Assembly: GCF_002117935.1 (NCBI RefSeq)
Contig: NZ_BDJE01000011.1
Location: forward strand, 8,425 to 32,424
Length of the DNA stretch: 24,000 nt
Source of the DNA: Nocardioides sp. PD653-B2
Lineage (GTDB): Bacteria > Actinomycetota > Actinomycetes > Propionibacteriales > Nocardioidaceae
Reading direction: 5' to 3'
The position numbers and the translations under genes were made by a program. Numbering within the stretch: position 1 is the stretch's first letter; every line of letters begins with the position of its first letter. The notes under the pieces were generated by a model. That model saw nothing but the letters and a program-made list of their open reading frames with translations, had not been told where the DNA came from and made no database searches. Shown one piece after another: positions 5,517 to 24,000 of the stretch.

Positions 5517-5524
5517 CGGTCCGC

Positions 5525-5960: not shown

Positions 5961-6019
5961 TCGGCTCGAAGAGGCGTCAAGGGCGCACGTCGGTCGGTCG
6001 TCGGCACAGGAGGAGAAGC

Positions 6020-8380: not shown

Positions 8381-8468
8381 GCCGCGGGCGCCTCGGGGGG
8401 TCGAGGTCGGGCGGGGTCCGGCCGCCGGATTCGCCCGCGAATCGGACGTGCTGACGTCATGATGTCTC

Positions 8469-8498
8469 TTGACGCTGTGGTCGCCGTCACCGTAGAGT
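8469..8498 (+). promoter_or_regulatory. Candidate sigma-70-type promoter for the etfB operon
   Basis: TTGACG (8469-8474), 18-nt spacer, TAGAGT (8493-8498; actinobacterial TANNNT). It lies about 64 nt upstream of the etfB GTG at 8562. Confidence 0.45.
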
Positions 8499-8532
8499 CT
8501 GCAATATGCGCGTAACCTCTGCATATGTTGCA
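8499..8532. promoter_or_regulatory. Operator-like TGCA-rich array overlapping the predicted etfB transcription start
   Basis: The sequence is CTGCAATATGCGCGTAACCTCTGCATATGTTGCA. GCGTAACCT at 8510-8518 and CTGCATATGTTGCA at 8519-8532 are exact copies (direct and reverse-complement respectively) of motifs at 5952-5960 and 5913-5926. Confidence 0.45.
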
Positions 8533-8561
8533 CAGTCCCTCTCGCTGCGGGTGGAGCTCTC

Positions 8562-9314: not shown

Positions 9315-10252
9315 TGACCCGCTTGCTCGTCGTCGCCGAGATCGTTGACGGCGCCGTCTCCCCTCTGACCGCGGAGGCCGTCTCGGCCGCCGCCTCGCTC
9401 GGCGGGGACGTGATCCTCGCCGTCGTCGGCCCCGATGCCGGTGCGCTCGCCGCCCAGGCCGCGCCGGCGGGCGTCACCGAGGTCGTCACCGTGACGGCGC
9501 CCGGCACCGACCGCGACCACGAGCAGATGCTGCACGCGGTCGCGGCGCTCGTCGCCGACGTCGCCCCGGAGGTCGTGGTCGCCGGCTTCACGATCCGCTC
9601 CACGGCGTGGGCCGCCGCTCTCGCCGAACGCCTCGACCTGGCGTTCGTGCCGGACGTCGTGTCGCTGACCGCGGCCGGCGGCGAGGTCACCGCGGAGCGC
9701 TCCATCTACGACGGCCGGGTCCGCGCCGAGTACGCCTTCCCGACGGGCCGTCCCGTCGTCGCCCTGGTCCGCGCAGGCTCCTGGCCGCCCGCCGAGCCGG
9801 CCGCCGCGGCCGCGACCCGGGCCCTCGAGGTCGATCTCCCTCCCTCGCGCGTCCGCGCAGGCGAGCTGACCCGGCCTTCCGGCGACGTGGACCTGACCGG
9901 GTCCGACGTCATCTTCGCGGTCGGTCGCGGTGTCGGCTCGGAGGAGAACATCGCGGCCTTCGCCGACATCGCGCGTCGCCTCGGCGCGGGCCTCGGCGCC
10001 TCGCGCCCGATCATCGACGCCGGCTGGCTGCCCGCCGTCCACCAGGTCGGCCAGACGGGCGTGACGGTGAAGCCCAAGGTCTACGTCGCGCTGGGTATCT
10101 CCGGCGCCCTGCACCACCTCGCCGGCATGCAGCACAGCAAGACGATCGTCGCGGTCAACACCAACGAGGACGCGCCCATCTTCGGGTACGCCGACGTGGG
10201 TGCGGTCGCGGACATCCACGAGGTCGCCGAGCAGCTGCAGGCGCTCCTCTAG
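9311..10252 (+). CDS. etfA: Electron transfer flavoprotein, alpha subunit
   Basis: 313 aa. The C-terminal FAD-binding signature is GASRPIIDAGWLPAVHQVGQTGVTVKPKVYVALGISGALHHLAGMQHSKTIVAVNTNEDAPIF. The start is GTG 9311 (GTGA overlap) or ATG 9314. Confidence 0.9.
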   Translation: MMTRLLVVAEIVDGAVSPLTAEAVSAAASLGGDVILAVVGPDAGALAAQAAPAGVTEVVTVTAPGTDRDHEQMLHAVAALVADVAPEVVVAGFTIRSTAWAAALAERLDLAFVPDVVSLTAAGGEVTAERSIYDGRVRAEYAFPTGRPVVALVRAGSWPPAEPAAAAATRALEVDLPPSRVRAGELTRPSGDVDLTGSDVIFAVGRGVGSEENIAAFADIARRLGAGLGASRPIIDAGWLPAVHQVGQTGVTVKPKVYVALGISGALHHLAGMQHSKTIVAVNTNEDAPIFGYADVGAVADIHEVAEQLQALL

Positions 10253-10290
10253 CACGACGACGGACCATCTGGTCGGGACAGGGAGAACTC

Positions 10291-11919: not shown

Positions 11920-12377
11920 GCATCACGGACGTGACGATCCAGCCGGCCTCGGCGCCGGTGCTGAGCGAGGAGCAGCGGGCACGGCTGGCGGTGCTGGCCG
12001 ATCTGTTGATCTCCGGTGGCGCGGGGCTGCCCTCGGCCAGTGGGGCGGAGGTGCCGACGCAGTGGATCGACCGGGTCCTGGCGGTGCGCGCCGACCTGGA
12101 CGCCACGGTGCGGGCGGTGCTGGAGCTGGAGGGTGATCCGGGCGAGGTGCTGGCCGGCCTGCGGGCGGATTCCCCGGAGGTGTTCGGGGCGTTCGCGATG
12201 GCGGTCGCCGGTGCCTACCTGATCAACCCGCGGGTGCGTCGCGGGCTGGGCTACCCCGGGCCGGCGCCGATGAAGAACCCGGCGCTGCCCGACGAGGCCG
12301 AGGCCTACCTCGAGGGCGGGATCCTCGACGTGGTCGTCGCCCGCGGACCGATCTACCGCCCCACGCCCCAGGGCTGA
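11916..12377 (+). CDS. Gluconate 2-dehydrogenase subunit-3-family small subunit (partner of the GMC dehydrogenase), without a Tat signal
   Basis: I trimmed ORF 11481-12377 to ATG 11916 (ATGA overlap with the GMC stop), giving 153 aa. LSEEQRARLAVLADLLISGGAGLPSASGAEVPTQWIDRVL matches the usual L-x-x-E-x-x-x-L-x-A-x-x-D-x-L-I-P...A...GV...FID opening of this family. There is no RRxFL twin-arginine motif. Confidence 0.55.
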   Translation: MSITDVTIQPASAPVLSEEQRARLAVLADLLISGGAGLPSASGAEVPTQWIDRVLAVRADLDATVRAVLELEGDPGEVLAGLRADSPEVFGAFAMAVAGAYLINPRVRRGLGYPGPAPMKNPALPDEAEAYLEGGILDVVVARGPIYRPTPQG

Positions 12378-12405: not shown

Positions 12406-13359
12406 TCAGCTGGGAGTCGCCCAGGTGAGGAGGCGTGCCGGGTTGCCCACCGTGATCTGGCGGATGGCCTGCTCCTCGAGGCCCTGGCGTCGCAGCCACG
12501 GCACGAACCGCCACGGGATGTAGCTGTAGCCCGGGCCGCCGCCCCAGCTGACCCAGGAGCTGCGCCGCGCCAGGTCGCCCGAGAGCACGACGTGCTCCAC
12601 CAGGCCGTCGTCGACCAGGCGGGCGACGGTCTCGACGCGCTTGGCGTCGGGCTCGTACCAGTCCTTGGAGATGCAGTCGAAGCCGAGCAGGAAGCCCTCG
12701 CGCGCGAGCGCGCGCAGCTCGGGATAGCGCAGCCGGCGGTCGAGGTGGCCCAGGCACACCCGGCGGGGGTCGGCTCCGGCCGCGAGCAGGATCCGCGCCT
12801 GGTCGGGTGCCATCGTCCCCGCGGTGGTGTGGGTCGTGATCGGCGAGCCCGTGCGCCGCTGGGTGATGCCGGCCGCCGTGAGCACCCGCTCCTCGGCGTC
12901 GGTCACCTCGTCGCGGGAGCTGCCCGCCTTGATGATGCCGGCGCGCACCTCGCTGCCGTCCACGCCGACGCTGAGGTCGGCGGTCATCTCCTCGACCAGC
13001 TGCTCGACCGACAGGGCCGGGACGTCGATGACGCCGTCCCAGTAGTCGACCGACACGTGGCCGGTCGTGGCGACGACCTGCACCCCGCTCTGGGCGGAGA
13101 TCGCCCGCAGCGCCCGGACGTCGCGCCCGAACTCCGCGACCGTGAGCTCGATCAGTGCTCCGCCGCCCGCCTGACGGAACACCTCCAGCTCGGCGACCGC
13201 CTTGGCGGGGTCGTCGAGCAGCAGGTCGTCGCCGTCACGGAGCCGAGGCGCGGGCGCGGTCACGAGGTGCTCGTGACACAGCGTCAGGCCGAGCGTCTCC
13301 GGAGCGACGTCACCAAGGACGGTACGGACGAATCCTTGACCACTCATGCCAGATATCAT
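12406..13359 (-). CDS. php: Phosphotriesterase-related protein (amidohydrolase superfamily; Php/YhfV-like, probable lactonase/esterase)
   Basis: 317 aa, collinear with the PTE/Php family. All binuclear-metal ligand positions are recognisable: TLCHEHL (HxH), AGIIKAGSS (Lys), ITTHTT (His), LGHLD (His) and LSGDLA (Asp). An alternative ATG at 13347 (MSGQGFVRTVLG...) is equally plausible. Confidence 0.85.
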   Translation of the reverse strand: MISGMSGQGFVRTVLGDVAPETLGLTLCHEHLVTAPAPRLRDGDDLLLDDPAKAVAELEVFRQAGGGALIELTVAEFGRDVRALRAISAQSGVQVVATTGHVSVDYWDGVIDVPALSVEQLVEEMTADLSVGVDGSEVRAGIIKAGSSRDEVTDAEERVLTAAGITQRRTGSPITTHTTAGTMAPDQARILLAAGADPRRVCLGHLDRRLRYPELRALAREGFLLGFDCISKDWYEPDAKRVETVARLVDDGLVEHVVLSGDLARRSSWVSWGGGPGYSYIPWRFVPWLRRQGLEEQAIRQITVGNPARLLTWATPS

Positions 13360-13360
13360 A

Positions 13361-13380
13361 ACGTCATAACAAGATGACGT
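13361..13380. promoter_or_regulatory. Perfect inverted repeat ACGTCAT-N6-ATGACGT in the AT-rich php / aroE-like divergent promoter region (candidate operator)
   Basis: ACGTCAT at 13361-13367, spacer AACAAG, ATGACGT at 13374-13380. It overlaps the 8-bp palindrome TGACGTCA at 13375-13382. It is embedded in the only markedly AT-rich stretch of this locus (about 13350-13382). Confidence 0.5.
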
Positions 13381-13397
13381 CAGGCGAGGAGGTCCCC

Positions 13398-14330
13398 GTG
13401 CGTCACCTCTACTTTGTCGGTGTCTCGACCACCAGGTCGAGCATCGTCACGATCTTCCCCGCCTGGGCGAAGGTGCTGGGCCTGGATGCCGAGCTCCGCG
13501 GCCTCGACGTGCCGCTGCACGCCCCGCCGGAGCAGCTGCGCGCCGCGGTCGACACCGTCCGTACCGACCCCGACATCGCCGGCGCGCTGGTCACGACGCA
13601 CAAGGCCGGCGTGTACGACGTCGCCGGCACCTGGTTCGACGAGCTCGACGACGCCGCCAAGCTCTGCCACGAGGTCTCGTGCATCGCGGTCCGCTCCGGC
13701 CGGCTGCTCGGCTGGGCGAAGGACCCGATCACCTCGCGGCAGGCCTACACCCAGCTGCTCGGGCCCGAGCCGTGGCGAGACGGCGTGGCTGACGTCGTCT
13801 GTCTCGGCGCCGGGGGCGCGGGTCTCGCGCTGCTCGTCGCCGTCCTGGGCGAGACCCACCAGCCGCGTCGACTGCTGCTCACCGATCGCGACGCCGGCCG
13901 GCTCGAGCTGGCCCGCGAGGTCGCGGCGCGACTGCCCGGGCGGGTCGAGCTGGAGCTGCACCACACCACGGCCGCGGAGCACAGCGACGAGGTCGTCGCC
14001 TCGGCCGCTCCCGGATCGCTCGTCGTGAACGCCACGGGCATGGGCAAGGACTCGCCGGGCTCGCCGGTGAGCGACGCCGTGGTCTTCCCGCGGGGCGCGG
14101 TCGCGTGGGACATGAACTACCGCGGCGAGCTCGACTTCCTCCGGCAGGCGCGCGCCCAGGAGTGGGAGCGCGGTCTCACCGTCGCCGACGGGTGGCGGTA
14201 CTTCCTGCACGGGTGGACCGAGGTCATCTCCGAGGTCTTCGACGTGCCCCTGGACGCCACCCTCTTCGCCCAGCTGGCCGAGGTCGCCGCCACGGCCACC
14301 GGGCGCAACGTCGCGGGGAACGCCACGTGA
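13398..14330 (+). CDS. Shikimate/quinate dehydrogenase-family (AroE-like) NAD(P)-dependent oxidoreductase, divergent member
   Basis: The ORF track starts at ATG 13374, but GTG 13398 has a strong SD (GAGGAGG 13386-13392, 5-nt spacing). It contains ALVTTHKAG (compare AroE NVTxPxK), LLGWAKDPITS (compare G-x-NTD-x-x-G), the Rossmann motif VVCLGAGGAGLALL, and LVVNATGMG. Confidence 0.6.
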   Translation: MRHLYFVGVSTTRSSIVTIFPAWAKVLGLDAELRGLDVPLHAPPEQLRAAVDTVRTDPDIAGALVTTHKAGVYDVAGTWFDELDDAAKLCHEVSCIAVRSGRLLGWAKDPITSRQAYTQLLGPEPWRDGVADVVCLGAGGAGLALLVAVLGETHQPRRLLLTDRDAGRLELAREVAARLPGRVELELHHTTAAEHSDEVVASAAPGSLVVNATGMGKDSPGSPVSDAVVFPRGAVAWDMNYRGELDFLRQARAQEWERGLTVADGWRYFLHGWTEVISEVFDVPLDATLFAQLAEVAATATGRNVAGNAT

Positions 14331-14359
14331 GCGCCGAGCCCCGCATCGGGCGGACCGCC

Positions 14360-15175
14360 TCAGATCGTGAACGGCGAGACCAGGGCTCCGGACGAACGCT
14401 TGTCACGGACGACGTCCATCTCGACGCGCATCCGGTCGGCCCGGTGCCAGGCCCGGAAGCACTCGATCGCGCCGCCGTTGGCGTCGCGGCCGACCGACTC
14501 GACGTAGAGCAGCGGTTCGCCCTGGCCGACGTTGAGGAGCTTGGTCATCATGCCCGCGGCAGCCGTCGCCTCGATGGAGCGGTGGCCGCTCTCGATGCGC
14601 AGCCCGAAGGAGTCCTCGAGGATCCGGTAGAGCGACCCCTGCGAGAGGTCCGCGGCGCGCAGGTGCTCGAGCAGCTGCGGGTCGTCGCGGTTCACGTAGG
14701 ACTTGGTGAAGGCGACGACCTCGTCGTTGACCGCGCGCTGCCGGACGACCTCGATGCAGTGCGCGCCGGCGTCGGCGCCCATCAGCTCCCGGATCCGGCC
14801 GGCGACCTCGATCCGGTCGATCGAGAGCACCGAGCTGGAGACGGAGTGACCGTGGCTGGTCATGTCCTCGAAGAAGCCGACCGTGCTCTCCATGAACTGC
14901 TCGGAGAGCTTCGGCTTGGCCACGAAGGTGCCCTTGCCGCGCATCCGCTGCAGGACGCCTTCGGTCACCAGCTCGCCGACCGCCTGGCGTACGACGGTCC
15001 GCGACACGCCGTACCGCGCGCACATCTCGGTCTCCGACGGCAACAGGTGGCCGGGCTCCAGTCCGTTCTGCGCGATCTCTCGCAGGATCAGCTGCTTGAG
15101 CTGCTCGTAATAGGGCAGTCGAGCATCCCGCTCGATCCCGCCGTGTTCGGCCACGACGCGGACCGTATCACCCAT
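14360..15175 (-). CDS. GntR-family transcriptional regulator, HutC subfamily (UTRA effector domain)
   Basis: I trimmed ORF 14360-15238 to ATG 15175. The HTH region is LPYYEQLKQLILREIAQNGLEPGHLLPSETEMCARYGVSRTVVRQAVGELVTEGVLQRMRGKGTFVA. The C-terminal region of about 150 aa is UTRA-like. It is divergent from the DUF2620 operon. An alternative GTG start lies at 15238. Confidence 0.85.
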   Translation of the reverse strand: MGDTVRVVAEHGGIERDARLPYYEQLKQLILREIAQNGLEPGHLLPSETEMCARYGVSRTVVRQAVGELVTEGVLQRMRGKGTFVAKPKLSEQFMESTVGFFEDMTSHGHSVSSSVLSIDRIEVAGRIRELMGADAGAHCIEVVRQRAVNDEVVAFTKSYVNRDDPQLLEHLRAADLSQGSLYRILEDSFGLRIESGHRSIEATAAAGMMTKLLNVGQGEPLLYVESVGRDANGGAIECFRAWHRADRMRVEMDVVRDKRSSGALVSPFTI

Positions 15176-15275
15176 GCTGAGGTGATGACAGGATGATGAA
15201 TCCCACACCGGGCCGTGGTCCCCGCGCCGACTTGGCACCCCTCACCACCACGTCACCAGCACGAAAGGCCCCCCG

Positions 15276-15683
15276 ATGAACGAGACCCGCTCGATCCGTG
15301 TCGTCGCCGCAGGAGTGGACGCACCGACCATGGCCAGGATCGCCCAGGACGCCGGCGGCGGCCGGGTCGAGGCCGCCGCCCTCGGCGACATGCAGGGCGC
15401 GCGACTGGTGAAGAAGGGGCAGGCCGACTACTACATCGGCACCTGCTGGTCCGGCGGCGGCGGCGCGCTCGCGGCCGCGACCGCGATCCTCGGCGCCAAG
15501 CAGGTCGGCATCGTCGGGACACCCGGGATGGTCGTCACCGAGGAGCGGGTCCGGACCATGGTGGGCGAGGGCCGGATCGCGTTCGGCTTCGCCTACGAGC
15601 AGACCACCACCGCGATCCCGTTGATCATCAAGGAGATCCTGGCCCACCGCGACGCGCAGGAGGGCCGCGCAGGTGACCGGTGA
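15276..15683 (+). CDS. DUF2620-family protein (YhfU-like)
   Basis: 135 aa. It has the core GQADYYIGTCWSGGGGALAAATAILG. I assign it from my recollection of the E. coli YhfU family and from its position next to PRD, mutase, racemase-fold and php homologues. GAAAGG lies upstream of ATG 15276. Confidence 0.55.
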   Translation: MNETRSIRVVAAGVDAPTMARIAQDAGGGRVEAAALGDMQGARLVKKGQADYYIGTCWSGGGGALAAATAILGAKQVGIVGTPGMVVTEERVRTMVGEGRIAFGFAYEQTTTAIPLIIKEILAHRDAQEGRAGDR

Positions 15684-16095
15684 CCTGACGGCCGACGCGG
15701 CCGCCCACGCCCAGATCACCGAGGAGTTCGCCGACCGGCTCGAGATGCTCGAGGAGTCCGGTCAGGTGAGCAAGCTCGCCCGCCGGCTCACCGAGCTCGC
15801 GCTCGCCGACCTCGCCGTCAGCCTCGACCTCCGGTTCACCGAGGAGAACTCCGCCCAGTTCGTGACCCACCTGGCGATCGCGCTGACCCGGATCAACCGC
15901 GGCGACCCCCCGATCGAGCTCTCGGCGGTCGCCGAGGAGGAGATCGCCGAGCGCACCCGCGAACGCGACGCCGTCGCTCGGGTGATGCGCGACTGCGCCC
16001 CGGTGCTCGAGCGCACGGTCCCCGATCCCGAGATCAGCTACATGACCGTGCACCTGTGCAGCATCGTCGACCTCCAGTCCGAGCAGGGCGGGTGA
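15673..16095 (+). CDS. Stand-alone PRD-domain protein (YhfY-like)
   Basis: 140 aa and all-helical in character. Two PRD-type histidine contexts are present: QFVTHLAIALTRI and SYMTVHLCSIV. The GTG start overlaps the DUF2620 3' end by 11 nt. The stop overlaps the next start (GTGA 16092-16095). Confidence 0.65.
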   Translation: MTGDLTADAAAHAQITEEFADRLEMLEESGQVSKLARRLTELALADLAVSLDLRFTEENSAQFVTHLAIALTRINRGDPPIELSAVAEEEIAERTRERDAVARVMRDCAPVLERTVPDPEISYMTVHLCSIVDLQSEQGG

Positions 16096-17294
16096 CCGGC
16101 CGCGCGGTGGTGGTCGTCCTCGACGGCTTCGGTGTCGGGGCGACCCCCGACGTCGCCGACTCCGACGCGGGCTGGCACACCCTGGAGCACGTCGCGGGGG
16201 ACGCACCCCTGCAGCTGCCGACCCTCGCGTCCCTCGGGCTGCACCGGCTCGCGCCTCGCGCGGTCGAGGAGCAGCAGCTGCGCGGCGCCTACGGCCGGCT
16301 CGCGCCGGTGCACCCCGGCGCCGACACCTACCTCGGACACCAGGAGCTCATGGGCGGCGGGTTGTCGCGCGTCGAGTTGAAGCTCATGGAGGACGTCGGC
16401 GAGACCGTCCGCGACGCCCTGGTGGCGGCCGGGCACCGGGTCGAGCCGCTGGTCGAAGGCCAGTCGATGCTGCTCGTCGACGGCGTCGCGGTCGTGCACG
16501 ACAACATCGAGGCCCGGGCCCGCCTGAACATCAACGTGACCGCCACGCTCGACGACATCGGCTTCGACGAGCTCAGCGAGATCGGCTTCGTCGTACGCCG
16601 TGCCGTGAACGTCTCCCGCGTCATCGTGGTCGGCAGCCGCGGCTACGACGTCGACGACATCCGGGCGCACATCGTGGACCGCGGCGAGGGCCAGGTCGGT
16701 GTCGACACCCCCGGCCTCGGGGTCTACACCGAGGACTACCAGGTGCGCCACCTCGGCCTGGAGTTCCCGGTCGAGCGGCAGCTCCCGACGCGGGTGATCG
16801 AGGCCGGCGGCGACGTGGTCCTGCTGGGCAAGGCGGCCGACGTGGTGCGCTGCACCGGCGCGGTGCGCGAGAACCTGGTGCCGACCGCGGAGGTGCTCGA
16901 CGCCGCCGTGCGCCACCTCACCTCCATGGAGCACGGGCTGATCGTGGCCAACGTCCAGGAGACCGATCTCGCCGGACACGAGCAGGACCGCGACCGCTAC
17001 CGGCAGGTGCTCCGGCTCGTCGACGCCAAGCTGCCGCAGCTGCTCGAGCAGCTGGGTCCCGACGACGTGCTGTTCGTCACCGCCGACCACGGCAACGACC
17101 CCACCTCGGGCAGCAGCCGCCACACCCGCGAGTACGTCCCGCTGCTCGCCTACGGTGCGGCGTTCCAACCCGTCGACCTCGGCATCCGGTCCACCCTCGC
17201 CGACGTCGCCGCGACCGTGGCCGACCTCCAGCAGCTCGCGGAGCTGGAGTCCGGAGAGTCATTCCTGAAGGAGATCTCGTGTTCATCGACGTGA
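16092..17294 (+). CDS. Phosphopentomutase-like metalloenzyme (alkaline-phosphatase superfamily; YhfW-like phosphosugar mutase)
   Basis: I trimmed ORF 16056-17294 to GTG 16092. The N-terminus AVVVVLDGFGVGATPDVADSDAGWHTLEHVAG...LQLPTLASLGL is collinear with DeoB (VLDSFGIGA...DT.GH...LNLPNL..LGL). ETDLAGHEQD and VTADHGNDPT are metal/phospho-site motifs. Confidence 0.8.
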   Translation: MTGRAVVVVLDGFGVGATPDVADSDAGWHTLEHVAGDAPLQLPTLASLGLHRLAPRAVEEQQLRGAYGRLAPVHPGADTYLGHQELMGGGLSRVELKLMEDVGETVRDALVAAGHRVEPLVEGQSMLLVDGVAVVHDNIEARARLNINVTATLDDIGFDELSEIGFVVRRAVNVSRVIVVGSRGYDVDDIRAHIVDRGEGQVGVDTPGLGVYTEDYQVRHLGLEFPVERQLPTRVIEAGGDVVLLGKAADVVRCTGAVRENLVPTAEVLDAAVRHLTSMEHGLIVANVQETDLAGHEQDRDRYRQVLRLVDAKLPQLLEQLGPDDVLFVTADHGNDPTSGSSRHTREYVPLLAYGAAFQPVDLGIRSTLADVAATVADLQQLAELESGESFLKEISCSST

Positions 17295-18493
17295 CCCGTC
17301 GCCGCAACCCCGCCCTGATCGACGCGGCGGTCGAGCTGCACCAGGCCGGGCGCATCCCGTCCAACTGCTACGTGGTCGACCTCGACACGGTGGCGCGCAA
17401 CGCCGCCGTGGTGGCGCAGGCCGCGAAGTCCCACGGCCTGACGGCCTACCAGATGACCAAGCAGTTCGGTCGCAACCCGGTGGTGGCCCAGGCCATCGCG
17501 GACGCCGGCATCGACCGCGTCGTGGCGGTCGACTTCGAGGAGGCCCGGCTGTTGCACGCCCACGGCCTGAAGATGGGCCATGTCGGCCACCTGGTCCAGG
17601 TGCCCGAGCACGAGCTCGGGCTCGCCGCCGACATGGAGCCCGACTTCGTCACGGTCTTCGGCTACGACCAGGCCGAGCGGATCAGCAAGGCGATGCAGGA
17701 GCGCGGCCGGGTCCAGGACCTGACGCTGCGGATCTCCGAGCCGGGCGACACCTTCTACCCCGGCCAGCGCGGGGGAGTGCCGCTCGCCGACGCGGTCGAC
17801 GTCGCGCGCCGGATCGACGCCCTGCCCGGCGTCCGCATGCGCGGCGTCACGAGCTTCCCGGTCGTGCTGTGGGACGAGACGGCCGGAGCCTTCGGCGCGA
17901 CGCAGAACCTGGAGACCCTGCGGGCCGCGTCCGAGGCGATCAACGCCGCCGGCATCGACGCGCCCGTGCGCAACACCCCGAGCGCCTGCTGCTCGGCGAC
18001 GTTCGGGATCAAGGCCGCGGCCGGTGCGACCCACGTGGAGCCGGGCAGCTGCCTCACCGGGCAGACTCCGCTGCATGCCGTGAGCGACCAGCCGGAGCTG
18101 CCGGCCATGATCTACGTCTCGGAGATCTCGCACACGACCGCGGACGCGGCGTACTGCATCGCCGGCGGGCTCTACCCACGGTCGAAGGCGCGCACCGCGC
18201 TGGTCTACGACGAGGTGGGCGCCGAGCCGGTCACCGCCGCGGTCGAGCTCGACCCGGCCGAGGCGATCGACTACTACGGCACCCTGCGTCTCGACGATCC
18301 CCGGCGCCTGCGGATCGGCAGCACCGTCGTGTACGCCTTCCGTGCGCAGGTGTTCGTCAGCAAGTGTTTCGTCGCCGTCGTCAGCGGGATCGGGTCCCAG
18401 CCGGTCGTCGAAGGCATCTTCACCAGCACTGGATTCCGTCTCGGGGAGGACCTCCTCCCGGTCGGCGGACTTGACGGAAGGACCGCGCCGTGA
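17279..18493 (+). CDS. Alanine-racemase-fold (fold-type III) PLP-dependent enzyme, YhfX-like
   Basis: 404 aa. It opens MFIDVTRRRNPALIDAAVELHQAGRIPSNCYVVDLDTV and has the lysine context AYQMTKQFGRNP. SD AAGGAG lies at 17268-17273. It overlaps the mutase 3' end by 16 nt. Confidence 0.7.
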   Translation: MFIDVTRRRNPALIDAAVELHQAGRIPSNCYVVDLDTVARNAAVVAQAAKSHGLTAYQMTKQFGRNPVVAQAIADAGIDRVVAVDFEEARLLHAHGLKMGHVGHLVQVPEHELGLAADMEPDFVTVFGYDQAERISKAMQERGRVQDLTLRISEPGDTFYPGQRGGVPLADAVDVARRIDALPGVRMRGVTSFPVVLWDETAGAFGATQNLETLRAASEAINAAGIDAPVRNTPSACCSATFGIKAAAGATHVEPGSCLTGQTPLHAVSDQPELPAMIYVSEISHTTADAAYCIAGGLYPRSKARTALVYDEVGAEPVTAAVELDPAEAIDYYGTLRLDDPRRLRIGSTVVYAFRAQVFVSKCFVAVVSGIGSQPVVEGIFTSTGFRLGEDLLPVGGLDGRTAP

Positions 18494-18768
18494 CTGCCAC
18501 GCGCACCGTGACCATCGCCGACCCCCAGGGCCTGCACGCCCGCCCGGCAGCGGACTTCGTGACCGCGTCGCGCGACTTCGAATGCGACCTGGAGATCCAG
18601 GTCGGGGACAAGTCGGGCAACTGCAAGAGCCTGCTGTCGGTGCTCAAGCTCGGTATCGCGCACGGCACGCTCGTCACCCTCCAGGCGACGGGCGCCGACG
18701 AGGAACGCGCCGTCACCGAGCTGGCCGAGCTGCTCGGCCACCAGGTCCAGGGCACGTCGTCGCCGTGA
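18490..18768 (+). CDS. ptsH: Phosphocarrier protein HPr
   Basis: 92 aa. The active-site His-15 context is TIADPQGLHARPAADFV. A Ser-46-like context, GNCKSLLSVLKLGI, is also present. There are GTGA overlaps at both ends (18490-18493 and 18765-18768). Confidence 0.9.
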   Translation: MTATRTVTIADPQGLHARPAADFVTASRDFECDLEIQVGDKSGNCKSLLSVLKLGIAHGTLVTLQATGADEERAVTELAELLGHQVQGTSSP

Positions 18769-20441
18769 TACTCCAGGGCATCCCGGCCTCGGGCGGTTGC
18801 GCACTCGGCCCGGTCGTCATGCTGGAGCCCGCGGGCGCCGACGTGGACGTCACCGCCAGGAGCACGCGCCCGGTCCCGGAGTCGCTGGACCGGCTCACCG
18901 CGGCGGTGGCGGCGAGCCGCGACGACATCGTCGCGATCGCCGCGACGGCCCGGGAGCGGATCGGTGCGGAGAACTCCGCGATCGTCGAGGCCCAGCTGCT
19001 GGTGCTCGACGACCCCGAGTGGCTCGAACCCGTGGTGGCGGCGATCCGTGGCGGCGCCACCCCTGAGGGCGCCGTGTGGGCGGTCAGCCAGGAGGTGGCC
19101 GGGCTGCTGGCAGCGCTCGACGACCCGTACCTCGCCGAGCGGTCGGCCGACGTCCTCGACGTCGGGCAGCGCGTGGTGGGGCACCTGACCAACCGGCGCC
19201 GGGCTCCCGTGCTCGCCGGCCTCGAGGGCGACGTCATCATCGGCGCCTACGAGCTCACCCCGACCGACACCCTCGCCCTCGACCTGGAGGTCGTGCGCGG
19301 GATCGTCACCGAGGTGGGGTCCCGCACCGCGCACGCCGCGATCATCGCCCGCCAGCTCGGCATCCCCGCCGTGGTGGGGGCGAGCGGGCTGCTCGACGCC
19401 GTGTGCTCGGGCGATGTCGTGCTCGTCGACGGGGACCAGGGCACCTGCACGCTCGACCCCGGCGACGCCGAGGTGGCCCGGGCGCGCTCGGTGGCCGCGG
19501 CGCGCGCCAGCCAGGCCGTGATCGTCGAGCGGGTCGCCACCAGCGACGGCATCGAGGTCGTGGTGCTGGCCAACGCCGGGAGCATCCTCGACGTCGAGCG
19601 CGCGGTCGGCTGGGGCGCGGACGGGATCGGGCTGTTCCGCACCGAGTTCTTGTTCATGCAGTCCCAGGCGCCCCCCGACGAGGAGGAGCAGGCGGCATAC
19701 TACGCCGCGGTGGCCCAGGCCGCCCAGGGCCGACCGGTGACGTTCCGGACCCTCGACATCGGGGGCGACAAGCCGGTGCCGGGGCTGCACGTGGAGGCCG
19801 AGGCCAACCCGTTCCTCGGGGTCCGGGGCGTGCGGCTCACCCTCGCCGACCACGACCTGTTCGCGGCCCAGCTGCGGGCGCTCGCGCGCACCGCGGCGGC
19901 GTACCCCGAGATCAGCGTGATGGTGCCGATGGTCTCCGGGCTCGAGGAGCTCGACGAGGTCCGCGCACTGCTGGCCGAGTGTGCCGGCGAGACCGCGTTC
20001 CGGTTCGGCACGATGATCGAGGTGCCCAGCGCGGCGGTGCTCGCCGCCGAGGTCGCGGACGAGGTGGACTTCCTCAGCGTCGGCACCAACGACCTGACGG
20101 CCTACGTCCTGGCGGCCGACCGGGGCAACACCCGGCTGGACTACCTCTACGACGAGTTCCACCCCGCGGTCCTGCGCACCCTCCGCCTGATCCGCGCCGG
20201 CGCGGGTGCCACGCCGGTGAGCATCTGCGGCGAGCTCGCCGGCGACCCGCGCGCGCTCGCTCTGCTGGTGGGGCTCGGCTACCACCGGTTGAGCGTGTCC
20301 GGGCCGCTGGTGCCGGTGGTCAAGGAGCGGGTCCGCGAGCTCGAGGCCGCCGGCACGGCCGACGGGGTGGCGGCGGTGCTGTCCGCACGGCGTCGCGCGG
20401 ACGTCTCCGCGGCGCTGGACCTGCTCACGCCCCGGGGCTGA
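18765..20441 (+). CDS. ptsI: Phosphoenolpyruvate-protein phosphotransferase (PTS Enzyme I)
   Basis: I trimmed ORF 18342-20441 to GTG 18765 ((M)ILQGIPASGGCALGPVV, the canonical EI N-terminus), giving 558 aa. The phospho-His motif is GSRTAHAAIIARQLGIPAVVG. The PEP-binding domain contains GLFRTEFLF, RTLDIGGDK, MIEVPSA and VGTNDLTAY. Confidence 0.95.
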   Translation: MILQGIPASGGCALGPVVMLEPAGADVDVTARSTRPVPESLDRLTAAVAASRDDIVAIAATARERIGAENSAIVEAQLLVLDDPEWLEPVVAAIRGGATPEGAVWAVSQEVAGLLAALDDPYLAERSADVLDVGQRVVGHLTNRRRAPVLAGLEGDVIIGAYELTPTDTLALDLEVVRGIVTEVGSRTAHAAIIARQLGIPAVVGASGLLDAVCSGDVVLVDGDQGTCTLDPGDAEVARARSVAAARASQAVIVERVATSDGIEVVVLANAGSILDVERAVGWGADGIGLFRTEFLFMQSQAPPDEEEQAAYYAAVAQAAQGRPVTFRTLDIGGDKPVPGLHVEAEANPFLGVRGVRLTLADHDLFAAQLRALARTAAAYPEISVMVPMVSGLEELDEVRALLAECAGETAFRFGTMIEVPSAAVLAAEVADEVDFLSVGTNDLTAYVLAADRGNTRLDYLYDEFHPAVLRTLRLIRAGAGATPVSICGELAGDPRALALLVGLGYHRLSVSGPLVPVVKERVRELEAAGTADGVAAVLSARRRADVSAALDLLTPRG

Positions 20442-20534
20442 CACCCGGAGGTCCCGTGGCCGGGTGGGCCTCGGTGGCCTCTCGGCCGCCAGCGCCCACA
20501 CAGCGCGGTGGACTTCCTGACATCCTGTTTCCCC

Positions 20535-21038
20535 ATGAGCACCGAGGCGTCAGCCGAGCGAGACCTGTTGCTCCACCGATTGGGTGACCAGCATCGCCAC
20601 GTCCTCGACCAGGTCGAGGGTCTCAGCGACGGCCAGCTGCGCCAGCCTGTCTTGCCGTCCGGGTGGTCGTGTCTCGGGCTGCTGCGTCACCTCACGCTGT
20701 CTGATGAGCGCTACTGGTTCGGAGTCGTGATGGCCGGTGAGCCCCTGGACTTCTGGCCGGAGGGCATCAACGCCGACTGGCTCGTCCATGACGACGAACC
20801 CCCGGCGTCGATCGTCTCAGCCTACCGCGCCGCCATCGAACATGCCGACGCGATCATCGCTGACCTCTCCCTCGATGCGCCGCCCGCCCGGCACGAGGAC
20901 TGGTGGGCCGAGTCCGGGCAGTCCTTCCCGGATCTGCGTACGGTCCTGGTGCACGTCCTGGTCGAGACCGCCACCCACGCCGGCCACCTCGACGTCGTGC
21001 GAGAGCTCCTCGACGGCAAGCAGTACCTGTCGATCTGA
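20535..21038 (+). CDS. DinB-family (DUF664 / mycothiol-transferase-like) protein
   Basis: It has a four-helix-bundle DinB pattern: ERDLLLHRLGDQHRHVLDQVEGLSDGQL, LGLLRHLTLSDERYW, and the C-terminal VLVHVLVETATHAGHLDVVRELLDG (His triad). An alternative GTG start lies at 20508. Confidence 0.7.
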   Translation: MSTEASAERDLLLHRLGDQHRHVLDQVEGLSDGQLRQPVLPSGWSCLGLLRHLTLSDERYWFGVVMAGEPLDFWPEGINADWLVHDDEPPASIVSAYRAAIEHADAIIADLSLDAPPARHEDWWAESGQSFPDLRTVLVHVLVETATHAGHLDVVRELLDGKQYLSI

Positions 21039-21079
21039 CGTCGAGTCAGGACGCGCAGATCGCTTCCGGAGCTCGCTGG

Positions 21080-21327
21080 TCAGTCGGGAGGCGACGCGAT
21101 GACGGCTTCGGCGGACTCGGTGCGGTCCAGACACTCGACGACCGTGTCGACATCCAGGCCGTCCGAGCCGTAGAGGTCGGTCGTCCAGGAGTGGCCGCCT
21201 CCGGGCCGCCGTGCGGTTCGCAGGAGGTGCTGAGGTCGATGTGCTGCTGGTCGTGACGAGCGAGGTGCGACAGAAGCGCGGCCGGTGCGCCTCGTTCTGT
21301 CACCACCGCAGGAGAAACCTCGGACAT
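21080..21327 (-). pseudogene. Small ORF with an apparent frame switch (frameshifted gene, sequencing indel, or mis-modelled start). No family recognised.
   Basis: High GC3 runs in the ATG-21327 frame from about 21267 to about 21193. It then moves to the frame ending at TGA 21080-21082 (GGHSWTTDLYGSDGLDVDTVVECLDRTESAEAVIASPPD; 36 of 39 third positions are G/C by my count). The second frame has no ATG/GTG start in its upstream portion. Confidence 0.25.
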
Positions 21328-21366
21328 CTCCGGACAGGCGTGGCGAACGGGGCGTTGCCGTGCCCG

Positions 21367-22311
21367 TCAGGTGGCGGAGCCGACCTCGAAGAGCAGAGCA
21401 GCGCCCTCGAGCCCACGGCGGAGCTCCTCGACGGCGAGGACGCCGGCGCGCTCGACGGCCTCGACCGTGGACGCGCCGCAGTGCGGCGTGAGGATCACGT
21501 TCGGGAGGTCGCGCAGCGGACTGGCGGCGTCCAGCGGCTCCTCCTCGAAGCTGTCGAGGGCGGCCGCGTGCAGGGGACCCTGGGCCAGCGCGACGGCGAG
21601 TGCGTCCTCGTCGACGATGCCGCCGCGGGCCGTGTTGACCAGGATGCTCGACGGCCGCATCCGGCCGAGCACCTCGGCGCCGAACAGGTGCCGGGTGGTC
21701 TCGGTCAGCGGGGCATGGATCGAGATGACGTCCGAGCGTGCGACCAGCTCGTCGAAGGCGACCATCGAGACGTCGGTCTGCACGGCCACCGGGTCGTGCC
21801 CGATGACCTCCATGCCGAGCGCCCTCGCGCGGACCGCCACCTCCTGGCCGATCCGGCCGATGCCCACCAGGCCGAGGGTCCGGCCGGCGAGCTCGAGCGC
21901 GGTCGGGCGCGACCACGAGCCAGCGCGCACCGACCGGTCGAGGCTCGGGATGCCGCGGGCCGCGGCCAGCATCAGGCCGACGGTGAGCTCGGCGACCGAC
22001 GTGGTGGTGGCGCCGAGCGTCCGGGTCACCCGGATGCCCTCGGTACGCGCGGCGTCGAGGTCGACGTTGTCGACCCCGATCCCGAAGCGCACCAGGACCC
22101 GGAGGCCGGTGCCCACGAGCGCCTGCGACGACGCCTCGTCGACGCCGAGGATGGCGCCGTCGCACCCGTCGAGCAGCTCCCGCAGCTCGGCCGCGGTCAG
22201 CGGCCGCTCCTGGGTCGGGTAGCGCACGTCGTAGCCGGCGTCGTGGAGCAGCTCCTGGTGCCGACCGGGGGTCTGGCGGAAGCCCCGCGGGGTCACCGCG
22301 ACGGTGGTCAC
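21367..22311 (-). CDS. D-isomer-specific 2-hydroxyacid dehydrogenase (phosphoglycerate dehydrogenase-like)
   Basis: 314 aa. The NAD motif is LAGRTLGLVGIGRIGQEVAVRARALGMEVIGHDP. NTARGGIVDE and the catalytic tail LTPHCGAST are present. The GTG start overlaps the cupin isomerase stop (GTGA 22308-22311). Confidence 0.85.
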   Translation of the reverse strand: MTTVAVTPRGFRQTPGRHQELLHDAGYDVRYPTQERPLTAAELRELLDGCDGAILGVDEASSQALVGTGLRVLVRFGIGVDNVDLDAARTEGIRVTRTLGATTTSVAELTVGLMLAAARGIPSLDRSVRAGSWSRPTALELAGRTLGLVGIGRIGQEVAVRARALGMEVIGHDPVAVQTDVSMVAFDELVARSDVISIHAPLTETTRHLFGAEVLGRMRPSSILVNTARGGIVDEDALAVALAQGPLHAAALDSFEEEPLDAASPLRDLPNVILTPHCGASTVEAVERAGVLAVEELRRGLEGAALLFEVGSAT

Positions 22312-22898
22312 GCGCGGCGGTAACGCGGGTTCGCGACGATCTCCGGGCCGCGCTCGCCCTCGACCACGATGACGGGGAAGCCCTGCTCGGCGATGGTGGC
22401 GTAGTCGTAGCCCGCGTCGCCGATGTAGACCGCGTAGAACACCAGCGGCTCGTCGCCGGTGTTCACCGAGCGGTGGGCCCAGTGGCCGGGCACGTAGTTC
22501 ACGATGCCCGGGCGCATCTCCTTGGTCTCGGTGGTGCCGTCCTCGAGCGCCATCACCAGCAGGCCCTGGCCGGACAGCGTCAGGTAGATCTCGGCGCGGT
22601 CGCGGGTGGCGTGGAAGTGACCCTTGGTCATGAAGTACTCGTCGCCGACCTTGCCCGGCTGGAGCACCGTGGTCGAGGAGAGGAGGTTGTTGTTCGTCGC
22701 CGGGACCCGGATCTCGTGCACGCTGTACATGTCGCCGTCGGCCGGGGTCGCCGTCTCGACGTCGCTGAGGAAGTAGCCCGCCAGATCGGCGAGACCGCGC
22801 CGCAGGACGACCGGGTCGGGCGTCAGGTCACCGGACTCGAAGTCGATGTACACCGTGAAGGGCACCAGGGCGCCCTCGGGCAGGTCGGTCGTGGTCAT
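22308..22898 (-). CDS. Cupin-type sugar-phosphate isomerase (archaeal-type glucose-6-phosphate isomerase family)
   Basis: 196 aa. The cupin metal motif FMTKGHFHATRDRAEIYLTLSG ... NYVPGHWAHRSVN matches the T-x-G-H-[FY]-H...E-x-Y...H pattern of cPGI. A strong SD (AGGAGGG) lies 6 nt upstream of ATG 22898. Confidence 0.7.
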   Translation of the reverse strand: MTTTDLPEGALVPFTVYIDFESGDLTPDPVVLRRGLADLAGYFLSDVETATPADGDMYSVHEIRVPATNNNLLSSTTVLQPGKVGDEYFMTKGHFHATRDRAEIYLTLSGQGLLVMALEDGTTETKEMRPGIVNYVPGHWAHRSVNTGDEPLVFYAVYIGDAGYDYATIAEQGFPVIVVEGERGPEIVANPRYRRA

Positions 22899-22921
22899 GG
22901 GTCACCCTCCTGGGTGGTCGG

Positions 22922-23995
22922 TCAGGCGGACGCGGCGGCGGAGCGGAACTCCGGGTCGGCCAGGGCGGCACGCAGGATGCGGAGCACGGTCTCGGCTCCG
23001 CCACGCATCGGGTTGACGCGTACGGCGTACCGCTCCAGGCCGGGAGCGGACTTCAGGAACGTGCTGGTCAGGTAGGTGAAGAGCGGCAGGAACTCGAACT
23101 GCGCCTCCTCGCCCACCGACTGGCTGGGTGACCCGTTGCGCCAGGCCGAGCGCAGGAACTCCTCGGCCACGGGACGGTCGAAGAGCAAAACGGCGCACCG
23201 GATCCCCGGCTGCGCGGCGTAGGCGCCGGCGAGGAACGGGTAGTCCTCGCTGCCGACGCCTTCGGTCACCGCCTGGGCGACGTCCAGCACCGTCTGGTTC
23301 TGGACTGCCAGCGCGACCGGCGCGAACACCAGTGCGCGCAGGGCTGCCATCGCGTGCGGACCCTGGATCTGGCAGCCGGCCGAGGACAGGTCGCGGCGGA
23401 TCTGCCCGACCGAATCGCGGTCGGCGAGCACCGCACCGATCGGGTGGGGGGAGAGCAGCTTGAACAGCGACAGCGCCGAGGCGTCTGCCCCCATCTGGAC
23501 CCCGATCCGCGGCGAGCGCATCACTGCGTAGTTGTCGTCGACGAGGATGCGTACGTCGTTCCCGCACACCGACCGCACCAGGTCGATGACCCGGGCGACG
23601 TCGTGGCTGTCCCCCAGCCGCTGCGGGACGTGCTGGAGGTAGACCGATGCGGGGCGGTGCTCGCGCAGGTAGGCCTCGAGGCCCGCGGCGTCGTCGAAGC
23701 TGGAGTAGTCGACGGTGAGTCCCATGTGCCGCATCGCCGGCAGCGTGGTCTTGTAGGGGTGCGCCTCGTGCACGACGATCCGCGAGCCGGGCTCGACCAG
23801 ACCGTTGAGCATCGCGCGGATGGACCCGGTCCCGGCGCCGTGGATCAGCACGGCGTCCTCGGCGTCGAAGAACCGCGCGAGGACCTCCTCGACCCGCGCG
23901 GTCGCCCGGGGCCGTCCGCCGCCGCCGAACCCGACCGTGGCGAGCTCGCGGACCTGGCCGTAGTCCTCGACGAAGACCACGTCGGACCCCATCAC
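22922..23995 (-). CDS. Fold-type I PLP-dependent enzyme, YhfS-like (aminotransferase / C-S or C-N lyase-like)
   Basis: 357 aa and complete in the window. It contains VLIHGAGTGSIRAMLNGLVEPGSRIVVHEAHPYKTTLPAMRHMGL, VDDNYAVM, the lysine context LSLFKLLSPHPIG, and C-terminal VRVNPMRGGAETVLRIL. It is collinear with my recollection of E. coli YhfS. It is the first gene of a minus-strand three-gene operon. Confidence 0.65.
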   Translation of the reverse strand: MMGSDVVFVEDYGQVRELATVGFGGGGRPRATARVEEVLARFFDAEDAVLIHGAGTGSIRAMLNGLVEPGSRIVVHEAHPYKTTLPAMRHMGLTVDYSSFDDAAGLEAYLREHRPASVYLQHVPQRLGDSHDVARVIDLVRSVCGNDVRILVDDNYAVMRSPRIGVQMGADASALSLFKLLSPHPIGAVLADRDSVGQIRRDLSSAGCQIQGPHAMAALRALVFAPVALAVQNQTVLDVAQAVTEGVGSEDYPFLAGAYAAQPGIRCAVLLFDRPVAEEFLRSAWRNGSPSQSVGEEAQFEFLPLFTYLTSTFLKSAPGLERYAVRVNPMRGGAETVLRILRAALADPEFRSAAASA

Positions 23996-24000
23996 CTGCT

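Follow-up and report, generated by a model that had tools for sequence, protein, structure and literature searches.

The 24,000-nucleotide stretch of Nocardioides sp. PD653-B2 analysed here (contig NZ_BDJE01000011.1; hereafter the window) carries, at positions 12406-23995, a rearranged relative of the php/yhfS-yhfZ gene set of Escherichia coli. Judged by its sequence, this is a known orphan gene set in a new actinobacterial variant and not a new category of system. Its most informative feature is a pair of genes for the phosphocarrier HPr (18490-18768) and for enzyme I (EI; 18765-20441) of the phosphotransferase system (PTS), which close the operon that also encodes the homologues of YhfU, YhfY, YhfW and YhfX. 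We propose, with chances that we regard as even, that the interval forms the central part of a larger regulon for catabolism, about 40 kb in total, and that this regulon would be PTS-energised, with EI-HPr as the phosphate source for the catabolism of an amino- or N-substituted sugar or sugar acid. The yhfS-yhfZ/php operon is a long-standing unexplained operon of E. coli K-12, and the crystal structures of three of its proteins were deposited under the label 'uncharacterized'. Literature searches yielded no functional assignment for the yhfS-Z cluster, Php, DUF2620 or YhfT, and no account of the actinobacterial version.

A yhf-type operon ending in HPr and enzyme I genes

Because the window has a G+C content of 72%, raw lists of open reading frames were unreliable; coding frames were therefore picked by third-position GC (GC3 frame plot), and the resulting genes were assigned to families with Pfam and NCBIfam. 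Their products were also compared by BLASTP with the E. coli K-12 frl/yhf region (yhfZYXW-php-yhfUTS, b3376-b3383), which served as the reference.

The operon lies on the forward strand and begins with a YhfU homologue of the DUF2620 family (PF10941; 15276-15683), which matches the Pfam model at 1.6e-29 (102.9 bits, cutoff 25) and is 35% identical to YhfU (1e-24). The next gene (15673-16095) encodes a YhfY-type stand-alone PRD protein (Pfam PRD 1.5e-9, 38.5 bits against a cutoff of 23). Its pairwise match to YhfY is marginal only; a profile built from this protein and YhfY recovers one family with an invariant THLAxALxR motif, in which the motif His is present in 100% of the sequences, an Arg and a Glu are invariant and a second His is found in 90%. 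The window protein has the invariant His within THLAIALTR, as well as the second His. These genes are followed by a YhfW-type phosphomutase (16092-17294), a phosphopentomutase-like metalloenzyme of the alkaline-phosphatase superfamily (NCBIfam NF009049, 431 bits against 254; 39% identity to YhfW, 9e-80), and by a YhfX-type fold-type-III pyridoxal phosphate (PLP) protein (17279-18493; Pfam Ala_racemase_N and YhfX-like_C, 91.5 versus 27 bits), which is 38% identical to YhfX (1e-93) and matches PDB entry 4kbx at 1.2e-82. The yhfW- and yhfX-type genes form an adjacent overlapping pair.

The HPr protein matches Pfam PTS-HPr at 7.5e-26 and TIGR01003 with 82.6 bits (cutoff 47.9), and its GLHARPA His motif is intact. 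Likewise, EI comprises three domains, each matched in Pfam, reaches 470.9 bits on TIGR01417 (cutoff 341.7) and retains both the TAHAAIIAR His motif and the CGELAGD motif. Segments of window proteins that resemble NCBIfam DhaM reflect generic similarity to EI and HPr only. The six genes have start-to-stop overlaps of 4 to 16 nt, including three GTGA overlaps (PRD/yhfW, yhfX/HPr and HPr/EI), and are therefore predicted to form one translationally coupled operon. Enzyme II (EII) families were not matched in Pfam or NCBIfam by any gene of the window or of the flanking contigs L001 and L088 described below.

Divergent Php and YhfS homologues and a HutC-type regulator

Two further relatives of the E. 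coli set lie on the reverse strand. The first is a PTE-family binuclear-metal hydrolase (12406-13359; Pfam PTE 3.7e-61), 34% identical to Php (2e-53). The second is a YhfS-like fold-type-I PLP enzyme (22922-24000; YhfS-like_C above cutoff) whose gene runs past the window end; in full length, on a contig identical to the window (L001), it encodes 403 amino acids with 38% identity to YhfS (4e-72) and a match to PDB entry 4j8l at 1.3e-66. Taken together, the five BLASTP matches to K-12 and the PRD profile family, with Pfam and NCBIfam, uphold the six homology calls (Php, YhfU, YhfY, YhfW, YhfX and YhfS) that had been made earlier from the letters of the window, the sequence-only reading.

For Php and YhfS, however, these calls hold at the family level, and both proteins appear to be divergent paralogue types. 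In a PDB comparison of the window PTE, entry 3pnz (9.5e-54) ranks over Php itself (1bf6, 1e-44), and 3msr/3ovg follow at 8.4e-39, whereas the PTE of a canonical Clostridium cluster matches Php at 5e-86. The actinobacterial PTEs share approximately 32% identity with the canonical ones, and on the Php-type NCBIfam model NF007373, where the cutoff is 486 bits, the window protein reaches 173. It is thus best placed by sequence in a paralogous subfamily nearest 3pnz, and not as a strict Php orthologue. We take the 3pnz subfamily to be that of the Lmo2620 phospho-sugar lactonases, and Bh0225 to be a phospho-sugar lactonase likewise. On the NCBIfam 'phospho-furanose lactonase' model (NF045706) the match of 4e-42 corresponds to 144 bits, far below the equivalog cutoff of 630, and the substrate of the window PTE therefore need not equal that of these enzymes. 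The YhfS-like protein is regarded as a paralogous subtype, here termed S', because in one locus of the Chloroflexota (L016) a canonical YhfS occurs alongside the actinobacterial S' type, the latter next to a class-III aminotransferase.

The regulator also differs. The gene at 14360-15175 (reverse strand) encodes a HutC-subfamily GntR protein with helix-turn-helix and UTRA domains (Pfam GntR 7.5e-19, 67.6 bits against 27; UTRA 2.5e-27, 95.9 bits against 23.8), which is 27% identical to FrlR, and no homologue of YhfZ (HTH_41 and YhfZ_C) was found in the actinobacterial loci. The earlier assignment of a HutC/GntR regulator in place of YhfZ was thus correct.

Conservation of the gene set across lineages

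The DUF2620 alignment was scanned over species-representative genomes, yielding 80 loci that were annotated by BLAST and HMM comparison with the reference proteins. Outside the Actinobacteria there are 68 loci, distributed among Firmicutes, Fusobacteria, Treponema, Petrotoga, Enterobacteria, Pasteurellaceae and others, in which the canonical order YhfZ-(PRD)-YhfU-YhfT-PTE-YhfS-YhfX-YhfW is nearly invariant. A phosphomutase is present in every canonical cluster, and no kinase-like gene was found inside any of the 68. The YhfY-type PRD gene occurs in 67 of these 68 loci and in every complete actinobacterial locus. In four non-actinobacterial loci (Treponema, Petrotoga, Fusobacteriaceae and Halanaerobiaceae), an HPr gene or an HPr-EI pair directly follows the last gene of the cluster.

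In 11 loci from Actinobacteria and Chloroflexota (Nocardioides, Blastococcus, Nanopelagicales, Microbispora, Sphaerisporangium, Arthrobacter and Chloroflexota) the architecture of the window recurs: a leftward PTE gene, a rightward AroE-like gene, a leftward GntR gene and a rightward U-PRD-W-X-HPr-EI operon, together with a unit encoding a class-III aminotransferase (AT3), S', a cupin-type isomerase and a 2-hydroxyacid dehydrogenase (2HADH). Genes for a SIS protein, ABC transporter components and an Eda-type aldolase, that is, of the 2-keto-3-deoxy-6-phosphogluconate (KDPG) type, are often added, and the aldolase gene lies inside the cluster in L012-L015. Ten of the 11 clusters encode HPr, and nine encode EI. 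YhfT adjoins the PTE gene in Microbispora, Sphaerisporangium, Arthrobacter and an uncultured Nocardioides (L015). In the Chloroflexota metagenome-assembled genome L016 (11620-14140, 10466-15578), PRD-HPr-EI forms a three-gene operon of its own, and there is no PTE gene. This conserved synteny bears out the view that the interval is a rearranged actinobacterial relative of the php/yhfS-yhfZ set with extra redox and isomerase enzymes. A locus labelled as a 'Bifidobacterium breve' metagenome-assembled genome (L009) has a Nocardioides-type cluster whose DUF2620 protein is 82% identical to that of the window; this contig may be mis-binned.

An amidase-like open reading frame is the sole recurrent extra gene of the canonical loci, being present in 33 of the 68 (L017-L084) and in none of the actinobacterial regulons. 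It encodes 320-400 amino acids, lies right after yhfT (e.g., L084 11812-12948) and gives borderline matches to the amidase signature. Such a gene hints at an amide-containing substrate; with no actinobacterial counterpart, it was set aside as a part of the regulon.

A conserved operator defines a putative regulon

An AT-rich 16-mer was derived from the divergent intergenic regions and searched as the pattern GTNATGAYNNNAYGAY with at most one mismatch. Its consensus, GTgATGACGTtATGAT, is a palindrome around ATGAC·GTCAT; the 16-bp palindrome approximates GTNATGAC·GTYATGAT, and sites of this type can also be written ATCATGACGTCATGAT. The window contains four matches against 0.29 expected, all of them intergenic. 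Two overlapping sites, GTTATGACGTTATGAT and GTCATAACAAGATGAC, occupy the divergent PTE/AroE-like promoter region (13355-13378), a third, GTGATGACAGGATGAT, lies on the forward strand between the GntR gene and the DUF2620 operon (15182-15197), and the fourth, GTGCTGACGTCATGAT (8448-8463, forward strand), precedes an electron-transfer flavoprotein (ETF)-GMC operon and is followed by a promoter-like site at 8469-8498. This last site was not used in deriving the pattern, and the same position is occupied in L005 and L006.

In the orthologous loci, 33 matches were found in 203 kb, nearly all at equivalent promoters: PTE/AroE-like, GntR/YhfU, 5' of AT3, 5' of ETF-GMC and, in Arthrobacter, 5' of YhfT. 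The site between the GntR and DUF2620 genes is kept in L005-L009, L012 and L013, and on contig L001 one lies between SIS and AT3. Just 5' of an SDR-YhfT operon the operator was found in the window's own organism (L091 63-78), in a 97% relative and in N. aquiterrae. In this way the operator appears to mark the promoters of at least six units here, and those of orthologous loci in at least five genera, as one regulon. The six units would be SDR-YhfT-GMC'-153aa-Ldh_2-MR_MLE-HAD; ETFbeta-ETFalpha-GMC-153aa; PTE; AroE-like; GntR/YhfU-YhfY-YhfW-YhfX-HPr-EI; and AT3-YhfS'-cupin isomerase-2HADH with a divergent SIS-ABC transporter unit. Within the interval 12406-23995 there are five transcription units, and not four as the sequence-only reading had counted. 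Since the operator is shared by all the divergent promoters and conserved across genera, the units look co-regulated, which favours the earlier reading on the point by which it might have failed.

The protein that binds the operator is most likely the HutC/GntR regulator, acting as a repressor with autoregulation. We infer this mode of action because the sites in the PTE/AroE-like region overlap a promoter-like -10 element of the PTE gene and another site lies 7 nt upstream of the ATG of the GntR gene.

YhfT and transporter genes beyond the window edges

Within the 24-kb window, neither tblastn nor a hydropathy scan detected a YhfT remnant or any membrane protein. The sequence-only reading had accordingly described a cluster that lacks the YhfT permease, and for the window itself this holds. 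The flanking contigs overturn it for the genome: since YhfT is encoded beyond the left edge, its apparent absence is a window-edge artefact.

On the left, contig L089 is 100% identical to window positions 1-11069, and the layout further upstream was read from a 97%-identical contig (L088) and from N. aquiterrae (L087). The window begins inside the operon SDR-YhfT-GMC'-153aa-Ldh_2-MR_MLE-HAD, whose start lies about 6 kb to the left, and in both L087 and L088 a gene for a sugar-binding protein precedes this operon. The 3' part of its penultimate gene, of the enolase superfamily (Pfam MR_MLE_C 1.1e-30), occupies positions 1-399 and its final gene, for a HAD-family hydrolase (Pfam Hydrolase/HAD), positions 396-1085, both on the forward strand; in L087 the genes form a chain of 4-nt overlaps. 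A YhfT-family protein annotated as Nocardioides sp. PD653 (P0191) stands in the SDR-YhfT-GMC' context, and one series of sequencing runs (DRR1013xx) produced both it and the 100%-identical contigs. On this evidence the same organism is taken to encode YhfT (PF10797), placed by synteny some 4 kb beyond the left window edge, at a distance of about 19 kb from the DUF2620 gene; a member of the family is thus present in the genome, but not next to yhfU.

The pair of genes for a GMC oxidoreductase and a 153-aa protein is duplicated, with one copy beside the PTE gene (window 10306-12368) and the other beside the YhfT gene (L088 6876-8931); the copies share approximately 81% nucleotide identity, and the short-read contigs of the organism break there. 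This duplication suggests that the YhfT and PTE genes were once adjacent and were parted by an insertion or duplication.

The high-confidence model of YhfT (P0172, N. aquiterrae, 468 aa; pLDDT 91.8, pTM 0.88) has two helical halves and a disordered loop at 231-256. A Foldseek comparison with solved structures in the PDB gave no significant match (best E 0.085, TM <= 0.2), and YhfT may thus represent an unsolved membrane-protein fold.

On the right, contig L001 is 100% identical to window positions 21180-24000 and reaches approximately 8.3 kb beyond the edge. An AT3 gene precedes YhfS' in the same operon, and divergent from it are genes for a 351-aa SIS protein, for the ATPase and permease of a CUT2-type sugar ABC system, for an SDR and for an old-yellow-enzyme flavoprotein. 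The SIS protein matches the GlmS isomerase domain at 2.5e-40 and NagB-II at 1.8e-39, in each case under the cutoff. The ABC permease gene lies about 5 kb past the window edge.

The fold and family of DUF2620

The DUF2620 family is rare: at E <= 1e-3 it comprises only 175 clusters (50% identity) among 1.84 billion representatives. Its members have an invariant loop, DYYxGxCx[ST]GGGGAL, that contains Cys57. The AlphaFold model (pLDDT 91.5) is predicted to have an RpiB/LacAB-like fold: RpiB accounts for 17 of the 21 top Foldseek matches, with TM scores of 0.6-0.66, and the best match is 6fxs_A (TMq 0.66, E 1.7e-4, probability 1.0). At the level of sequence, a search of the DUF2620 profile against PDB sequences returned nothing significant, and the comparison with E. 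coli RpiB was not significant (hhalign E 0.033, probability 1.5%). This insignificant alignment sets Cys57 on the catalytic Cys66 of RpiB and [ST]59 on Thr68; the other catalytic and phosphate-binding motifs of RpiB (Asp-His, His-Asn/Arg) were not evident by eye on two DUF2620 alignments. A classical EIIB identity was rejected, with no EIIB chain among the top 50 Foldseek matches and no significant profile match in the PDB.

Fusion proteins of the types PTE-DUF2620, DUF2620-PRD and DUF2620-YhfT were also encountered (P0218, P0208 and P0255). They could be real fusions or artefacts of read-through or assembly and were not counted as evidence, because each has a single representative and mirrors the local gene order.

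Additional enzymes of the regulon

The three enzymes that the sequence-only reading had regarded as additions to the E. coli set, an AroE-like protein, a cupin isomerase and a 2HADH, are real and kept across the actinobacterial loci. As a list of the additions they were incomplete, since the HPr and EI genes lay in a segment (18490-20441) that had been skipped. The AroE-like gene (13398-14330, forward strand) has a GAGGAGG ribosome-binding site before its GTG at 13398 and is kept beside the PTE gene in 11 actinobacterial loci. Its product has no Pfam match, matches the NCBIfam shikimate dehydrogenase model far under the cutoff (1.6e-13), and is weakly similar to shikimate dehydrogenase (1nvt, 2.5e-6) and to 5-ketofructose reductase (7cok, 1.4e-5) in the PDB; it is described here as a divergent NAD(P) oxidoreductase of the shikimate-dehydrogenase family. 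The cupin-type phosphohexose isomerase (22308-22898, reverse strand; Pfam GPI 3.6e-25) matches the archaeal cupin phosphoglucose isomerase 1x7n over its full length (7.1e-48). The D-2-hydroxyacid dehydrogenase (21367-22311, reverse strand) is the last gene of the AT3-S'-cupin-2HADH operon.

The ETF-GMC operon (8562-12377, forward strand) encodes ETF-beta (8562-9314), ETF-alpha (9311-10252), a GMC flavoprotein oxidoreductase (10249-11919), all assigned by Pfam, and the 153-aa protein (11916-12377); it adjoins the PTE gene in the Nocardioides loci L005, L006 and L008 as well. The 153-aa protein has no family match, in Pfam not even at E=1, and its gene is kept behind each GMC oxidoreductase gene. 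It may be a small subunit of a flavoprotein dehydrogenase. The possibility that the 11916-12377 frame is a degraded YhfT was rejected, as it encodes a conserved soluble partner of the GMC oxidoreductase.

Proposed pathway and alternative explanations

From these comparisons we infer the operator-binding protein, the route of phosphotransfer, the order of the enzymes and the class of substrate. An amino- or N-substituted sugar or sugar acid would be imported by YhfT and/or the CUT2-type ABC system. The phosphoryl group would come from phosphoenolpyruvate (PEP) through the dedicated EI and HPr and not from an ATP kinase, probably by way of a module of YhfY (PRD), YhfU (Cys loop) and YhfT. YhfW would then move the phosphate on the phosphorylated intermediate, the dehydrogenases and the phospho-sugar-lactonase-like PTE would open or oxidise the sugar, and YhfX, YhfS' and AT3, with the GlmS/NagB-II-like SIS protein, would take off or shift the amino group. 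Finally, the cupin isomerase and a KDPG-type aldolase would feed central metabolism, with hexose-6-phosphate and pyruvate plus triose-phosphate as endpoints. The class of substrate is suggested by the combination of the lactonase-like PTE, the SIS protein, the cupin phosphoglucose isomerase, three PLP enzymes, dehydrogenases and the KDPG-type aldolase. The earlier proposal of a phosphorylated amino-sugar, amino-sugar-acid or Amadori-type compound was a reasonable guess, and it gains from the SIS protein, AT3 and the aldolase, which lay beyond its view. PEP-derived phosphate is proposed because an intact EI-HPr pair is part of the operon, the PRD protein is universal, and the canonical clusters have a phosphomutase without a kinase. 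The PRD protein with its fully conserved His links all lineages to the PTS, since PRD domains are known targets of phosphorylation by HPr and EII (PMC4987338).

Several observations weigh against this proposal. The operator pattern was derived from the window, and only the matches that it makes in other genomes and at additional promoters count as independent evidence. The closest structures to DUF2620 are isomerases with no EIIB chain among the top 50, the YhfT model resembles no solved EIIC or other transporter, and none of the loci yielded an EIIA-type protein. The uncultured Nocardioides locus L015 is without HPr and EI, and that of Nocardioides zhouii (L008) keeps HPr without EI; as these loci have lost them, the in-cluster PTS genes appear dispensable, and a general PTS may substitute. 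Three of these points argue against a classical PTS permease: there is no EIIA, YhfT shows no EIIC-like fold, and two Nocardioides loci have lost EI or HPr. In addition, a PfkB kinase, KDG-kinase-like and encoded in an IclR operon without the operator, lies nearby (5882-6988), and the many dehydrogenases and isomerases permit several pathway orders.

One alternative is a purely regulatory role of the PTS proteins. HPr~P would phosphorylate the YhfY-type PRD protein and thereby modulate a regulator or transporter in inducer or catabolite control, while the substrate would use a kinase elsewhere or never be phosphorylated by the PTS. All characterised PRD domains are regulatory (PMC4987338); the separate PRD-HPr-EI operon of the Chloroflexota, the lack of in-cluster HPr and EI in L015, the missing EIIA and EIIC-like fold and the nearby PfkB kinase all fit such a role. 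We nevertheless consider it unlikely, in that a phosphomutase occurs in the canonical clusters without any kinase-like gene, a complete EI gene is costly for a mere regulatory input, and the PfkB protein is KDG-kinase-like and belongs to a separate IclR unit. A somewhat stronger, although still tentative, alternative concerns YhfU alone, which might be an RpiB/LacAB-type sugar-phosphate isomerase or epimerase with the invariant Cys as catalytic base, and neither a phosphocarrier nor a transporter subunit. Its RpiB-dominated structural matches, the alignment of its Cys-x-[ST]-G loop with Cys66/Thr68 and the retention of YhfU some 19 kb from YhfT in this genome agree with that role, whereas the insignificant profile link and the lack of visible conservation in the remaining RpiB motifs do not. 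Moreover, yhfT directly follows yhfU in almost all of the 68 canonical loci with the PRD gene before it, a pattern typical of a transport or signalling module, and a Cys-Gly-rich loop is a hallmark of Cys-type PTS EIIB proteins.

The original view of a permease-less, re-wired yhf cluster in independent units, with three extra enzymes as its sole additions, is very improbable. It accords with a window in which neither membrane protein nor YhfT remnant is found and in which the three enzymes are genuine. The YhfT gene to the left, under the same operator, refutes its permease claim, an ABC permease lies to the right, and HPr, EI, AT3, SIS and the ETF-GMC operon also belong to the conserved set. 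We assign a similarly slight chance to a biosynthetic function, such as formation of an amino-sugar-derived metabolite. Aminotransferases, PLP enzymes, dehydrogenases and a mutase occur in amino-sugar biosynthesis also, but a HutC-type regulator, a sugar-binding protein with a sugar ABC importer, PTS components, a KDPG-type aldolase and ETF-linked dehydrogenases are hallmarks of catabolism, and no glycosyltransferase, nonribosomal peptide synthetase, polyketide synthase or exporter was seen.

PTS-fed catabolism could involve an unrecognised kind of PTS Enzyme II, composed of YhfT, YhfU and YhfY and fed by EI-HPr in Actinobacteria and Chloroflexota, an idea that we hold to be doubtful. YhfT would be a membrane protein of new fold, the RpiB-like Cys-loop protein YhfU an EIIB-like phosphoryl donor and the stand-alone PRD protein YhfY a phosphocarrier or sensor. 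If true, this would explain the phosphorylated intermediates of the kinase-less E. coli yhf cluster and add a new type of Enzyme II; otherwise, the locus would still be a delimited handle for a substrate search. The dedicated HPr-EI pair, which recurs in other phyla, the universal PRD protein and the lack of a kinase together offer a testable answer to the question of the phosphate source, while the conserved operator provides a complete parts list of candidate pathway enzymes. The RpiB-like fold of DUF2620 with its invariant Cys loop is a structural lead, as is the unmatched membrane fold of YhfT.

Neighbouring genes

A gene of the mycothiol-S-transferase/DinB family (20508-21038, forward strand; Pfam MST 9.5e-37) starts 66 nt after EI and has no counterpart in the L005-L016 synteny. 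Because it is absent from the orthologous loci, it is probably unrelated to the system and was excluded as a member. No convincing gene was recognised in the 330 nt that come next (21039-21366). The YhfT operon is separated from a KDG-type operon by a six-gene operon on the reverse strand (1103-5920), which encodes an FlK-type thioesterase, a cyclase, a MaoC dehydratase, an acyl-CoA synthetase, an aldo/keto reductase and a NIPSNAP-like protein and has no match to the GntR-type operator. Directly 5' of the ETF-GMC operon, the KDG-type operon (5882-8351, forward strand) encodes the PfkB protein (KDG/KDGal-kinase-like), an IclR regulator and a KDPG/KDPGal-type aldolase; in other actinobacteria a KDPG-type aldolase gene is part of the yhf-type cluster. 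Scanning the window with Rfam returned no RNA matches, and a scan for intrinsic-terminator-like sites found none.

Comparison with known systems

The PTS-dependent dihydroxyacetone kinase (DhaKLM) is a precedent for the delivery of EI/HPr phosphate outside a classical EIIC permease. Homologues of DhaK, DhaL and DhaM are absent here, and the acceptors would instead be YhfY and YhfU. With the RpiB/LacAB isomerases, DUF2620 shares a superposable model and the aligned Cys57/[ST]59 positions; it differs from them in lacking significant profile similarity and evident further active-site motifs, and in the genomic association of its gene with those for a membrane protein and a PRD protein. The window PTE resembles the PTE-family phospho-sugar lactonases, being nearest 3pnz and also matching 3msr/3ovg, but it scores far below the equivalog cutoff and its genomic context is not alike. 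Such lactonases (MS53_0025) hydrolyse pentono-1,4-lactone-5-phosphates, as reported in a later paper (PMC10971088, citing Korczynska et al. 2014).

The dga (D-glucosaminate) and gfr (fructoselysine/glucoselysine) systems of Salmonella are PTS-dependent routes for amino-sugar-acid and Amadori compounds, in which the substrate is phosphorylated on uptake, under PRD-based control, and processed by deglycase or ammonia-lyase plus aldolase chemistry (PMC4987338). Together with DhaKLM they are the nearest precedents in mechanism, and the proposed pathway would follow a similar logic of PTS, PRD, SIS- or PLP-type deamination and KDPG-type cleavage. However, the Salmonella systems use mannose-family EIIABCD components, of which none was found here, and sigma-54 LevR-like activators, whereas the present system has the membrane protein YhfT and a stand-alone 140-aa PRD protein.

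The closest relative is the E. coli yhf cluster itself, with which the actinobacterial system shares the YhfU, YhfY, YhfW, YhfX and YhfT families as well as PTE-family and YhfS-like enzymes, at 34-39% identity. In E. coli the regulator is YhfZ and the genes form one operon, whereas here the regulator is of the HutC/GntR type, the genes are distributed over at least six operator-linked units, and YhfT lies about 19 kb from YhfU instead of adjoining it. The PTE and YhfS proteins appear to be paralogous subtypes, and HPr and EI genes have joined the operon. Finally, the AroE-like protein, cupin phosphoglucose isomerase, 2HADH, AT3, SIS, ETF-GMC, Ldh_2, MR_MLE, HAD and SDR proteins are added in the actinobacterial system.

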